Sequence record: NC_054922.1
Strand: one strand, 5' to 3'
DNA: 64,000 nucleotides
Origin: Escherichia phage vB_EcoM_KAW1E185
Shown here in pieces: positions 56,166-60,017 of this stretch (the first letter of the stretch is position 1; every line of letters starts with the position of its first letter). Under the pieces are notes generated by a model. The model did not search any database. It worked only from the letters and a program-made list of their open reading frames with translations, and was not told where the DNA came from. The translations under genes and the position numbers were made by a program.

Positions 56166-59100
56166 ATGGCTACTTTAAAACAAATACAATTTAAAAGAAG
56201 CAAAACCGCAGGTGCACGTCCTGCTGCTTCAGTATTAGCCGAAGGTGAATTGGCTATAAACTTAAAAGATAGAACAATTTTTACTAAAGATGACACAGGA
56301 AATATCATCGATTTAAGCATTTCTACTGGCGGTAATATCAGTGGTAATATCACTCAAACTGGTGATTATACACAGACTGGAAAATTTAATTTAATTGGTC
56401 CGCAAATTGTAGCAAGCGGTGGATATATTGAGTTTAATTATCGTACTACTGGAAGTGGGGCTTGGTCCGGTCAACATACTGCGAAAGCTCCAATTTTTGT
56501 AGATTTAAGCTCAGCTACTTCCACATCTGAATATAATCCTATAATTAAACAGCGCTTTAAAGATGGAACTTTTTCATTAGGTACTTTAGTTTCTGAAGGT
56601 TCGTTGAAGATTCATTATATCAATGAATCTGGCGATTCGAAATATTGGACGTTTCGACGTGACGGCGGATTTACTGTTGACGGTGGAGGTTTAGCAGTAT
56701 CAGGAGGTAGTATAACTACATCTGGAAATATCGCAGCTATTGGAAATATTACTTCGCCTCAGATTAATACTAAAAATATTATTTTAGATACAAAAGCATT
56801 TGGACAATACGATTCGCAATCATTAGTTCAATATGTTTATCCTGGAACAGGCGAAGAAAATGGTATAAACTATCTTCGTAAAGTTCGAGCTAAATCAGGC
56901 GGTACAATTTATCATGAATTAGCTTCTGCGCAAACCGGAAAAAGTGATGAACTTTCTTGGTGGACTGGTAATACAGCCGTTAATAAACAAATGGGTCTTC
57001 GTAATGATGGGGCTTTAGTATTACGACGCTCACTCGCAATTGGTACAATTACAACAGATGAAAACATTAATAACTACGGCTCCGCTGGAGCAATGGGCGA
57101 ATGTTATATAGTTATCGGTGATGCATCAACAGGCTTATCATACAAAAAAACTGGAGTATATGATTTAGTTGCTAGTGGTCTTTCTTTAGCATCTATTACT
57201 CCTGATAGTTTCCGTAGTACCCGTAAAGCGATTTTTGGTCGTTCCGAGGACCAAGGTACAACATGGATTATGCCTGGAACCAACGCCGCGTTTTTATCGG
57301 TTCAAACACAAGCTGATGAAAACACTGCTGGAGACGGCCAGACGCATATTGGCTATAACTCAGGCGGAAAAATGAACCACTATTTCCGTGGTAAAGGCAA
57401 AACTAATATTAATACTCAAGAAGGCATGGAAGTTAACCCGGGTATTTTGAAATTGGTAACTGGCTCTAATAATGTAATGTTTTATGCTGATGGCGGTATT
57501 ACATCTGTTAAGCAGCTTTCAATATATAATGGCATATATTTAGCAGCTAATAATTCTACTGCTGGGCTAACATTCGCTCCAACTACTACAATTGATGGTA
57601 CTAAGCAAATTTTGTGGGAAGGCGGTACTCGTGCTGGGCAGAATAAAAGCTATGTAACTGTTAAAGCATGGGGTAATTCATTTAACGCATCTGGCGATCG
57701 TAATCGTGAAACGGTTTTTGAAGTAGCTGATGGACAAGGATATTATTTTTATTCACAGCGTGTGGCTCCAAGTGGCTCTGAAACTACTGGGCCTGTTGTA
57801 ACCCAGTTCAATGGACAAGTTAATGCTAGAGGAAGTATTATTACTGACGGAAGTTTTAAAGTTAATGGATTAAGCACTTTAGTCGGTAATGTTACCATGT
57901 CTAATGGTTTGTTTGTCCAAGGTGGTTCTTCTATTACTGGACAAGTAAAAATTGGTGGAACTGTTGATGCATTAAGAATTTGGAATGCCGAATACGGTGC
58001 TATTTTCCGTCGCTCAGAAACAGCATTACATATTATCCCGACTCCTAAAGATGCCGGTGAAAGTGGTGGAATAAGTAATCTCCGCCCACTTAGTATTAGC
58101 CTTAATAATGGTATGGTGCAAATGCGTCATTCCGTTACATTAGGTGATGATGGTGCAGGCGGTAATATGGTGACGGTTGATAATGATTCTAAAGTTATGG
58201 TAATGACGACTAATAGCCGTATTAGTCCTAACTTCCGTATGCAAATTGGACGGTCGTCTTATATTGATGTGGAATGTACTGATGCTGTGAGACCTGCTGG
58301 AGCCGGTTCTTTTGCTTCACAGAATAACGAAAACGTTCGCGCTCCGTTCTATATGAATATTGATAGAACAGATACAAGCACTTATGTTCCTATTGTGAAA
58401 CAAAGATACGTTCAAAATAATAGTTGCTATTCTATTGGTACTTTAATTAATGGTGGTAACTTTAGAGTTCATTATCATGAAGGCGGAGACGGCGTTTCTA
58501 CTGGTGCTATTATAAAGGATCTTGGATGGGAATTTAATAAAAACGGTGATTTTTATTCTCCTGGTAAATTAGGCGCTGGAAATATTAGAATAGGTACTGA
58601 TGGTAATATTACTGGCGGAACTGGTAACTTTGCTAACTTGAACACAACTATCGAATCATTAAAAACCGATATTGTATCGAGTTACCCAATCGGTGCTCCT
58701 ATTCCATGGCCAACGGATACTCCTCCTGACGGTTACGCTATTATGGAAGGCCAGACTTTTGATAAGTCTGCATACCCAAAATTGGCTATGGCTTACCCAT
58801 CTGGCGTAATTCCAGATATGCGCGGGCAAACTATTAAAGGTAAACCAAGTGGTCGAGCTGTATTAAGCGCAGAAGCCGATGGTGTTAAGGCTCATAGCCA
58901 TAGTGCATCGGCTTCAAGTACTGACTTGGGTACTAAAACTACGTCGAGTTTTGATTATGGTACTAAGACGACAAGTAGCTTTGACTATGGCACTAAGACT
59001 AGCAATACCACAGGTAACCACTCTCATACTGTAAGCGGTACTACGAGTTCTGCTGGTGCACACCAACATGCGCGCTCAGGTCCTCAGATACAAGCCGGCA

Positions 59101-59438
59101 TACCCAATAACATATTCTATGACGGATATAATAGTGTAGGTGCAAACGCCAACGCTAAATTCACTGGAACCGTGAACGGTGCTACTGTAGGGTCGAATAT
59201 AGCCAAAACTTCTTCAGACGGTGCTCATACTCATACTTGGTCTGGTACTACAAGCACTACAGGTAACCATGCTCACACAGTAGGTATTGGTGCTCATACC
59301 CATACTGTAGGTATCGGTGCTCATACCCACACGGTAGCAATTGGCTCGCATGGTCATACTATCACTGTAAATAGTACAGGTAATACAGAAAACACGGTTA
59401 AAAACATTGCTTTTAACTATATCGTTCGTTTAGCATAA
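56166..59438 (+). CDS. 37: long tail fibre distal subunit gp37 (receptor-binding tip)
   Basis: 1090 aa (T4 gp37 about 1026); C-terminal His-box repeats; ends [11 protein letters not shown] as recalled for T4. Confidence 0.93.
58929..59003 (+). repeat. tandem 30-bp coding repeat in gene 37 ([10 protein letters not shown] x2.5)
   Basis: Two 30-bp units encode identical peptides but differ at about 9 synonymous positions. Confidence 0.85.
59280..59360 (+). repeat. tandem 27-bp His-box repeats in gene 37 (VGIGAHTHT x3)
   Basis: Three consecutive 27-bp units; further HxH motifs upstream. Confidence 0.85.
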
Positions 59439-59465
59439 GGAGAGGGGCTTCGGCCCCTTCTGAAT
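59437..59465 (+). promoter_or_regulatory. gene 38 translation initiation region with hairpin between SD and AUG
   Basis: AAGGAG at 59437-59442, hairpin GGGGCTTCGGCCCC at 59444-59457, ATG at 59466. Confidence 0.55.
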
Positions 59466-60017
59466 ATGAAAATATATCATTATTATTTTGACACTAAAGA
59501 ATTTTACAAAGAAGAAAATTACAAACCGGTTAAAGGACTCGGTCTTCCTGCTCATTCAACAATTAAAAAACCTTTAGAACCTAAAGAAGGATACGCAGTT
59601 GTATTTGATGAACGTACTCAAGATTGGATTTATGAAGAAGACCATCGCGGCAAACGAGCATGGACTTTTAATAAAGAAGAAATTTTTATAAGTGACATTG
59701 GAAGCCCGGTTGGTATAACCTTTGATGAGCCCGGCGAATTTGATATATGGACTGATGACGGTTGGAAAGAAGACGAAACATATAAACGCGTTTTAATTCG
59801 CAATAGAAAAATTGAAGAATTATACAAAGAATTCCAAGTTTTAAATAATATGATTGAAGCTTCTGTCGCGAATAAAAAGGAAAAATTCTATTATAAAAAC
59901 CTTAAGCGGTTCTTTGCTCTTTTAGAAAAGCATGAGCATTTAGGTGGTGAATTCCCTTCATGGCCTGAAAAAGAACGGAAACCTTGGTATAAGCGTTTAT
60001 TCAAGCATTACGTATAA
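59466..60017 (+). CDS. 38: tail fibre assembly chaperone gp38 (T4-type)
   Basis: 183 aa, T4-type gp38 length; MKIYHYYFDTKEFYKEENYKP matches recalled T4 gp38. Confidence 0.9.
   Translation: MKIYHYYFDTKEFYKEENYKPVKGLGLPAHSTIKKPLEPKEGYAVVFDERTQDWIYEEDHRGKRAWTFNKEEIFISDIGSPVGITFDEPGEFDIWTDDGWKEDETYKRVLIRNRKIEELYKEFQVLNNMIEASVANKKEKFYYKNLKRFFALLEKHEHLGGEFPSWPEKERKPWYKRLFKHYV

Follow-up and report, generated by a model that had tools for sequence, protein, structure and literature searches.

A tandem repeat in the gp37 tip stem of Escherichia phage vB_EcoM_KAW1E185 is probably an old structural module whose codons differ no more than chance predicts

Two neighbouring stretches of a tail fibre gene of Escherichia phage vB_EcoM_KAW1E185 (Tequatrovirus; record NC_054922.1) encode one and the same ten-residue peptide with largely different codons, which raises the question whether selection scrambled these codons or whether such a pair calls for no particular cause. 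In the window, i.e. the whole stretch of 64,000 nucleotides that was analysed, the peptide is found at residues 922-931 of gp37 (unit 1, 58929-58958) and again at residues 932-941 (unit 2, 58959-58988), both in frame with the open reading frame 56166-59438, and a partial third unit, GTKTS (58989-59003; GGC ACT AAG ACT AGC), follows and runs into the second His box; these features, as all others given below, lie on the plus strand. An earlier note on this DNA had described adjacent 30-bp units between 58929 and 59003 that encode the same peptide and are followed by a partial third copy, and translation in frame bears this out. It had also spoken of about nine synonymous differences: synonymous they all are, but they amount to eight nucleotides in six codons, and the TTT/TTT pair that it listed is identical. 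The two units share GGT, ACT, TTT and TAT as their first, second, eighth and tenth codons and read, in unit 1 and unit 2 respectively, AAA/AAG, ACT/ACG, ACG/ACA, TCG/AGT, AGT/AGC and GAT/GAC at the remaining six; the serine codons TCG and AGT are connected by no path of single synonymous steps. Tandem Repeats Finder detected the repeat independently (58922-59001; period 30, 2.7 copies, 74% matches, score 83). A register shifted 15 nt upstream (58914-59003) fits better, as it holds three full ten-residue units, the first of which, the degenerate unit 0 (58914-58943) seen in the repeat search, corresponds to T4 residues 890-899; unit 2 has no T4 counterpart. An overlapping gene was considered on either strand and rejected, the only other reading frames across the repeat being mechanical ones of 51 residues, and no promoter-like or terminator-like site was found on either strand in or beside the repeat.

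The reading frame 56166-59438 encodes the distal subunit of the long tail fibre, gp37, with 1090 residues. The name, already given in the earlier note, is confirmed by 96% nucleotide identity over the full length to Tequatrovirus gp37 genes and by the match of the C-terminal 278 residues to the structure of the T4 gp37 tip, PDB 2XGF (Bartual et al., 2010; as described in PMC6957217), which takes in the collar, the stem and the C-terminus (phmmer E=2.7e-95; query 35-312 to chain residues 2-242). The collar domain (residues 843-890, 58692-58835; Pfam PF07484, E=2.2e-11, 43.9 bits against a cut-off of 24) precedes the stem, as expected for a tip of the T4 gp37 type. The first HxH motif, HSH (residues 910-912, 58893-58901), stands at the base of the ascending strand and aligns to T4 H883/H885. 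It is followed, beyond the ten-residue units, by an ascending 14-residue module (HSH, 11 residues, HQH; residues 952-968, 59019-59069), by the head subdomain of 52 residues between the third and the fourth HxH (59070-59225), which matches the T4 tip subdomain 932-959 (PMC6957217) and varies among relatives, by a descending 14-residue module (HTH, 11 residues, HAH; residues 1021-1037, 59226-59276) and by a descending run of three nine-residue His-box units closed by HGH (59268-59357), within which Tandem Repeats Finder reports a second array (59274-59337; period 27, 2.4 copies, 86% matches). There are eight HxH motifs in all, three before the head and five after it. Directly downstream lies a reading frame of 183 residues (59466-60017), whose positional counterparts in relatives carry the annotation tail fibre assembly protein or 'similar to T4 gp38'; it would thus be a gp38-type assembly chaperone gene as in T4 and not an adhesin of the T2 type. 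Judged by homology, collar and HxH series, the end of KAW1E185 gp37 is a predicted receptor-binding tip of the T4 gp37 type with the 2XGF fold.

We consider it probable that the repeat is an old structural module of the tip stem and that the codon differences between its copies reflect saturation and patchwork inheritance, with no special selection. The tip would form the trimeric end of the fibre, in which each chain goes up to the head and then back down; a doubling back of the chain into a six-stranded needle is described in PMC12609058, where the number of HxH motifs is suggested to scale with needle length. The HxH motifs are predicted to hold, in KAW1E185 as well, iron ions that staple the tip along its axis. 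The ten-residue units (x-x-[F/T]-D-[Y/L]-G-T-K-x-x, here FDY units) would stand between the first two HxH of the ascending strand, each of them paired with one nine-residue unit of the descending His-box run (HxH-T-V-G-I-G-A), and one matched pair would correspond to one added stem layer and one predicted iron site. The KAW1E185 stem would then have three such layers with its eight HxH and the T4 stem two layers with seven HxH, and the KAW1E185 tip would bind an eighth iron at a predicted site, made up of residues 1044-1046 or 1053-1055 at the height of the additional FDY unit. The duplication itself is presumed to be old, and the copies in KAW1E185 carry two different and widely shared codon versions, which would account for the saturated synonymous sites. 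The identity of the two peptides would come from constraint on G-T-K and F-D-Y and, at the four positions that tolerate change (TTSS), from coincidence.

The published T4 contacts G921-F970 and H929-G964, with stem boundaries at 882-931 and 960-1009 (PMC6957217), give an antiparallel register of i+j ~1892, which places T4 residues 890-899 opposite 993-1002 and 900-909 opposite 983-992; this register is extrapolated from two contacts some 20-30 residues away. Ascending and descending units may accordingly lie opposite one another in the folded stem. A monomer model of this tip built with AlphaFold2 (32-sequence alignment) was unusable, with a mean pLDDT of 48.9, a pTM of 0.20 and no predicted stem strands, an intertwined trimer being unsuited to monomer modelling.

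The amount of codon difference can be compared with chance. If the codons of this peptide are drawn at random twice, the draws are expected to differ in 5.4-5.5 codons and 6.8-7.0 nucleotides; the observed values are 6 and 8, and the probability of a value at least as large is about 0.4-0.5. The divergence of the units is at saturation and not above it, and while the protein-level repeat is far beyond chance, the extent of synonymous difference is not. Taken alone, this test fits strong selection for scrambling just as well, the end state of such selection being saturated divergence. For the repeat on the descending strand (HTVGIGAHT twice), 3 of 27 nucleotides differ in KAW1E185 against 4.9 expected, which is not significant (P=0.17) and gives no strong evidence for the expectation that this repeat is clearly less diverged than chance.

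Across 30 distinct two-unit alleles, unit 1 and unit 2 of the same genome differ by anything from 0 to 13 nt. The peptides differ from each other in the majority of alleles; where they are identical, the difference is 0 nt in VR25, 4 in the allele L014, 7 in F2, 8 in KAW1E185, R5505 and KMB23 and 8 in LF82-41. VR25 (NC_028925) encodes the peptide twice in a perfect DNA repeat of 38 nt, other alleles have identical runs of 17-20 nt between the units, and the longest identical in-register run in KAW1E185 is 8 nt. G-T-K and F-D-Y vary little or not at all among the tips examined, and the serine position of the TCG/AGT switch is taken by S, G, T, A, N or V. The nearest DNA relatives of KAW1E185 unit 1 are the first units of PCM001 (2 nt) and TH57 (3 nt); those of unit 2 are the second units of L003 and F2 (2 nt each) and of LF82-41 (3 nt), with flanks that differ by 20-36%. 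Each unit is thus nearest to units at the same position elsewhere, so two codon versions were inherited, and the version in unit 2, being common to F2, LF82-41 and L003 at 2-3 nt, did not evolve in place. Unit 2 seems to be a mosaic patch of small size that other tip lineages share: between the second units of KAW1E185 and L003, 2 of 30 nt differ, against 36% in the flanks (binomial 2.5e-4, with no correction for the many comparisons made). R5505 and KMB23 have exactly the codons of KAW1E185 in both units, so the allele was already in GenBank, and the KAW1E185 tip, being 99.8% identical to that of deposited phages, is already known.

A patch of about 30 nt, common to three other tips in spite of such divergent flanks, would suit a role of the conserved DNA at the unit boundary (GGTACTAA, together with TTTGAYTAT) as a short homology for the exchange of tail fibre modules between phages, similar to the His box, so that the repeat would partly be kept as a recombination substrate. 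The occurrence of the same tip in Tequatrovirus, Mosigvirus, Gaprivervirus and Felixounavirus phages and in lambdoid Stf genes speaks for such a role. Duplications and exchanges in gp37 that are bounded by short conserved motifs were reportedly described by Tetart and colleagues in 1996 and 1998. However, the conserved codons are already explained by the invariant G-T-K and F-D-Y residues, and the patch statistic carries the reservation given with it above. We therefore hold this role of the boundary DNA to be unlikely.

The earlier note had proposed that the codons were scrambled to suppress recombination or slippage. On this reading the peptide is kept, and synonymous divergence is favoured since it takes away the DNA homology needed for slippage or unequal recombination. 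All eight differences are synonymous and the longest common run is short, as this would predict. Furthermore, a stem with one FDY unit and three His-box units, the result of a single FDY loss, occurs in 0 of 117 distinct tips, so deletions of a single FDY unit are probably harmful and their avoidance could pay. However, six codons and eight nucleotides against 5.4 and 7.0 expected is what random codons give, with no excess, and the difference is inconsistent among the alleles that keep the repeat (0-13 nt) and has a mean below saturation in the amino-acid-identical ones (0, 4, 7, 8 and 8 nt). VR25 retains its long perfect repeat with the same peptides, and the runs of 17-20 nt persist elsewhere; many alleles have no more than 1-5 differing nucleotides in the neighbouring 27-nt descending repeat. 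The divergence within a genome is not above the divergence between paralogous units of different genomes. The codon version of unit 2 is older than KAW1E185, and the TCG/AGT switch requires a non-synonymous intermediate or a multi-base change at a position that is variable among alleles. Thus what is left of the earlier reading is the constraint on the protein, visible in the kept G-T-K and F-D-Y, and selection for scrambled codons, against which saturation, allele spectrum and inheritance all speak, is in our opinion very unlikely. The note had also asked for copy numbers across T4-like phages and had taken an absence of repeats in other phages as counting against it: most of the phages sampled have two FDY units, and T4 and G2285 have one fewer, so the absence is partial.

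Least probable of all, by a small step, is concerted evolution, in which gene conversion or repeated re-duplication keeps the peptides identical: the DNA-identical units of VR25 (P=2e-4 for random codons), both of which are similar to first units elsewhere, and the smaller distance over all alleles between units of one genome than to other-position units elsewhere (7.07 vs 9.63 nt) would suit it, but the gap vanishes among T4-like phages (5.36 vs 5.61 nt), and the peptides differ in most alleles. In KAW1E185 the eight synonymous differences all but refute concerted evolution; there, no common run exceeds 8 nt, and each copy has a nearer relative at its own position in other phages than in the adjacent copy.

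Under the preferred reading, that of an old stem module with inherited codon versions, the number of FDY units should be seen together with the rest of the stem. From 100 loci and 120 protein clusters, 117 distinct tips were parsed and classified by their numbers of FDY units, ascending 14-residue, descending 14-residue and descending nine-residue modules, in this order: 35 tips are (1,1,1,2), 35 are (2,0,0,3), 45 are (2,1,1,3), one is (2,2,2,3) and one is the mismatch (2,1,1,2). Ascending and descending 14-residue modules are equal in number in every one of the 117 tips, and the number of FDY units tracks that of the descending His-box units in 116. The exception is a metagenomic contig (L001; IMG/VR 3300030021_000020) with two FDY units and only two descending nine-residue units, which could be an assembly or population variant. 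The pairing is also seen in other fibre architectures, namely in Felixounavirus VpaE1 (2/2) and, with three FDY units and three spacings each, in L102/L105 and a Mixta prophage. Alleles with at least three FDY units were found at four loci in three collections, L102 and L105 being the same protein; the allele with four units (L103) runs off its contig and provides no test of the pairing. Linkage could account for part of the covariation, since these sequences share ancestry and tips are transferred horizontally en bloc.

These counts lead us to the tentative suggestion, which we consider possible but rather less than even in probability, that stems of gp37/Stf-type tips consist of obligatorily paired modules: xxFDYGTKxx going up with HxH-TVGIGA coming down, and SxSGTxxSAGx-HxH going up with its twin coming down. 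Mismatched copy numbers would then be selected against, and stem length and iron-site number could change only by two coordinated indels about 300 nt apart, which flank the receptor-binding head. The FDY aspartate would, if the modules are paired, lie level with the iron site of the descending His box and possibly be a second-shell partner of its histidines. Such a pairing rule is stated neither in PMC6957217 nor in PMC12609058, and the primary structure paper (Bartual et al., 2010) may describe it; a full-text literature search for the FDYGTK motif and for His-box/GXHXH wording returned nothing. The repeat is real but ordinary: it belongs to a protein with a solved homologue, and its codon differences need no special explanation. 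For practice, the matched copy numbers, which hold for 116 of the 117 tips and recur in three further fibre architectures, suggest a design rule, that is to keep the stem halves in register when tips are engineered or heads are swapped, and module counts could serve as a sequence-only predictor of the number of predicted iron sites in such fibres.

The T4 gp37 tip belongs to the same family and has the same order of collar, HxH stem, head and return strand, with an identical C-terminus. In the stem the only differences are two gaps, both in T4, of 10 residues at the FDY unit and of 9 residues at HTVGIGAHT, so that T4 has one FDY unit and seven HxH where KAW1E185 has two and eight; the head of KAW1E185 is different and longer (52 vs 34 residues between the flanking HxH motifs). 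The Pfam family PF03335 (Phage_fiber), a 14-residue tail fibre repeat, touches the His-box segment of KAW1E185 at residues 947-960 with a sub-threshold 16.9 bits against a cut-off of 20 and leaves the FDY units uncovered. The closest phages are the Tequatrovirus members R5505, 303Ecol101PP and KMB23, with 98.7-99.8% nucleotide identity over the last 601 nt and few tip substitutions elsewhere. The gp37 of the Gaprivervirus VR25 has the same two peptides and the stem class (2,1,1,3) at 84% nucleotide identity over the tip, and differs from KAW1E185 in that its units are identical in DNA as well. Homologues number about 2256 in all. The C-terminus of lambda Stf and the tail fibres of E. coli prophages, at about 60-66% amino-acid identity over the tip, share the stem layout of KAW1E185, in which two FDY units (TTSSFDY, TTGSFDY) go with three nine-residue units on the way down. 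Lambda differs from KAW1E185 in its shaft and assembly protein (Tfa), in the bacterial-like codon usage and in the two peptides, which are not identical (Gly for Ser); lambda Stf and most of the T4-like phages sampled have eight HxH and a predicted three layers, like KAW1E185.

The repeat lies in the gene of the long tail fibre distal subunit, gp37, as the earlier note had proposed. The open reading frame at 56166-59438 (+ strand, 1090 aa) is 96% identical at the DNA level, over its full length, to gp37 of several Tequatrovirus phages, and its 278 C-terminal residues match the known structure of the T4 gp37 receptor-binding tip (PDB 2XGF, E=2.7e-95); a tail collar domain is assigned by Pfam to aa 843-890. 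Over the final 601 nt the identity to phages R5505 and 303Ecol101PP is 99.8%, thus the allele of the window has already been deposited. The next open reading frame (59466-60017, 183 aa) occupies the place where a gp38-type tail fibre assembly protein is annotated in relatives.

The segment 58929-59003 is in frame with gp37, and the reading confirms two adjacent 30-bp units with one shared ten-residue peptide, followed by a partial third. Unit 1 (58929-58958, + strand, aa 922-931) and unit 2 (58959-58988, + strand, aa 932-941) share the codons GGT ACT at the start and TTT and TAT near the end, and differ by 8 nt in six codons (AAA/AAG, ACT/ACG, ACG/ACA, TCG/AGT, AGT/AGC and GAT/GAC), all synonymous; the partial unit on the same strand reads GGC ACT AAG ACT AGC (GTKTS). 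The "about nine" synonymous differences claimed previously were close, although the listed TTT/TTT pair is no difference at all. Tandem Repeats Finder also calls the array (58922-59001, period 30, 2.7 copies, 74% matches), and a register 15 nt further upstream gives three full ten-residue units at 58914-59003. Apart from gp37, no plausible gene covers the repeat, and neither promoter-like nor terminator-like sites were found within or adjoining it.

The earlier note explained the scrambled codons by selection which keeps the peptide while suppressing recombination or slippage between the copies. We compared the two units with independent codon strings for the same peptide, drawn from the codon usage of gp37 or, separately, of 35 long open reading frames of the window. 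Such strings are on average 5.4-5.5 codons (sd 1.5) and 6.8-7.0 nt apart, and the probability of a difference at least as large as the observed one (6 codons, 8 nt) is about 0.4-0.5. The units are saturated at silent sites, with no excess of divergence over unrelated codon strings. Serine TCG versus AGT, one of the six codon changes, is unreachable by single synonymous steps, and relatives have S, G, T, A, N or V at this position; amino-acid identity there is an agreement of state and not unbroken conservation. In the other tandem repeat of the window, HTVGIGAHT x2, 3 of 27 nt differ against 4.9 expected (P=0.17), which is not significantly below chance.

The repeat was followed through 80 IMG/VR loci, 19 comparable GenBank phage loci and 120 protein clusters. 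The expectation of a repeat in other T4-like phages held for most of those sampled: the window, 16 other T4-like phages and lambda Stf carry two of these ascending-strand units (FDY units), but T4 and G2285 have a single one. In most two-unit alleles the peptides differ from each other (TVSTFNH is an example of a second unit), and constancy is limited to G-T-K and F-D-Y. The units of 30 distinct two-unit DNA alleles are 0 to 13 nt apart, and in the five alleles with identical peptides the distances are 0 (VR25), 4 (the IMG/VR locus L014), 7 (F2), 8 (window/R5505/KMB23) and 8 nt (LF82-41). The gp37 tip of VR25 (L087, NC_028925.1) has the exact two peptides of the window encoded by a 38-nt perfect direct repeat, compared to a longest identical in-register run of 8 nt between the window units; hence a natural phage tolerates a perfect repeat. 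Both VR25 copies look like the unit 1 found in other phages, suggestive of a recent conversion or re-duplication event.

The closest relative of neither window unit is its own neighbour. Unit 1 is nearest to unit 1 of PCM001 (2 nt) and TH57 (3 nt), and unit 2 to unit 2 of L003 and F2 (2 nt) and LF82-41 (3 nt); since the units are nearest to same-position units elsewhere, both codon versions predate the window phage. Against L003, a collected homologous locus, unit 2 shows 2 differences in 30 nt, compared with 36% divergence over the 159 nt on its flanks (binomial 2.5e-4, uncorrected for multiple comparisons). Set against phages that share its head type (ECO07P1, PCM001 and others), unit 2 is where the segment diverges most. 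Unit 2 therefore resembles a small mosaic patch. Strong mosaicism marks the tip as a whole and extends across phage groups: DNA like window 58840-59440 is present in Tequatrovirus, Mosigvirus, Gaprivervirus and Felixounavirus, its 3' end resembles lambda, other lambdoid Stf genes and Gifsy-2, and the head subdomain varies even where phage stems are near-identical.

Selection for scrambling within a genome predicts that units should differ more within than between genomes. This is not what is observed: the mean distance within a genome, 7.07 nt, is no larger than the 9.63 nt from unit 1 to unit 2 between genomes (5.36 versus 5.61 in T4-like phages only). Such selection is not needed, and it is contradicted by the perfect repeat of VR25, by the range of distances among alleles and by codon versions common to several genomes; it may at most be a weak second-order effect. 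Age and mosaic inheritance account for the silent-site differences; the protein repeat itself is genuine, and its location is a known one.

This location is the stem of the tip. In T4 gp37 the collar comprises residues 811-881 and 1010-1026, the stem 882-931 and 960-1009, and the tip subdomain 932-959, and seven iron atoms are held by histidines along the needle (PMC6957217). At the head the chain turns back on itself to form a six-stranded needle, whose length has been suggested to scale with the number of HxH motifs (PMC12609058). Our T4 numbering agrees with all residues named in PMC6957217 (G921, F970, H929, G964, H931, I933); the monomer AlphaFold2 model was of too low quality for use. 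The T4 repeat units, 890-899 and 900-909, belong to the ascending strand, directly above the collar. The contacts G921-F970 and H929-G964 (PMC6957217) give an antiparallel register of i+j ~1892, which upon extrapolation would place 890-899 opposite 993-1002 and 900-909 opposite 983-992. One descending nine-residue HxH unit (His-box unit) would then face each ascending ten-residue unit, with the D-[L/Y] of the latter level with HxH. On this reading the window repeat is an additional layer of the iron-stapled stem, and the return strand carries one more His-box unit to match.

Another tandem repeat with identical peptides, HTVGIGAHT x2, is located at 59274-59337 (aa 1037-1054; period 27 nt, 3 synonymous differences); one of its copies is missing from T4, as a nine-residue gap. 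It is this repeat, not the FDY one, that is a repeat_region in the GenBank record of phage teqhad. The phage GiZh records (KT184311.1 / NC_054903.1) annotate within gp37 an "attP prophage attachment site" and a direct repeat as "possible binding site of StbAB", which in a virulent T4-like phage looks like an annotation oddity.

We classified 117 distinct tip sequences by their numbers of FDY units, ascending 14-residue, descending 14-residue and descending nine-residue modules. Class (2,1,1,3), including the window, has 45 tips; (1,1,1,2), the architecture of T4, and (2,0,0,3) have 35 each; (2,2,2,3) and (2,1,1,2) have one each. One FDY unit with three descending nine-residue units occurs in 0 of 117, and ascending and descending 14-residue counts are equal in all 117. 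Ascending ten-residue units, the degenerate TDL unit included, equal the nine-residue His-box spacings in number. The sole mismatch, L001 (IMGVR_UViG_3300030021_000020, about 1501-2259), has two FDY units and two rather than three descending His-box units, and may be genuine or reflect an artefact of assembly or population. The single (2,2,2,3) tip, cluster P0042 (363 aa), carries two 14-residue TLSGTAxSAGA-HTH modules ascending and two descending, where the window has one each, which makes a second kind of paired stem module and a predicted total of 10 HxH motifs. Between the stem halves the heads show great variety (among the protein clusters, the two main classes have 13 and 21 distinct head starts), so exchange between stem halves seems common, and the near absence of mismatched stems is then suggestive of selection. 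Part of the covariation could come from shared ancestry and block transfer.

The equality of units and spacings extends to fibres of other architecture: Felixounavirus VpaE1 (2/2), the loci L102/L105 (3/3) and a Mixta prophage (3/3); the four-unit allele L103 is truncated by the end of its contig and carries no information on this point. In L102/L105, L104 (Mixta mediterraneensis) and L103 (an Enterobacteriaceae MAG), three or four FDY units come right after the first HxH, and L104 has HTY in place of HxH at one descending motif. Unlike T4, these fibres are without the T4-type C-terminus and end in ...LMGWYR[ST]A. Compared with the window stem, T4 has two gaps, the ten-residue FDY unit and the nine-residue return-strand HTVGIGAHT. 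These two units explain only 19 of the extra residues of the window protein (1090 aa versus 1026 aa in T4, by the residue numbering of PMC6957217), the rest being in the head and farther upstream in the shaft. The extra stem layer and its matching His-box unit account for 8 HxH motifs in the window phage against the 7 of T4.
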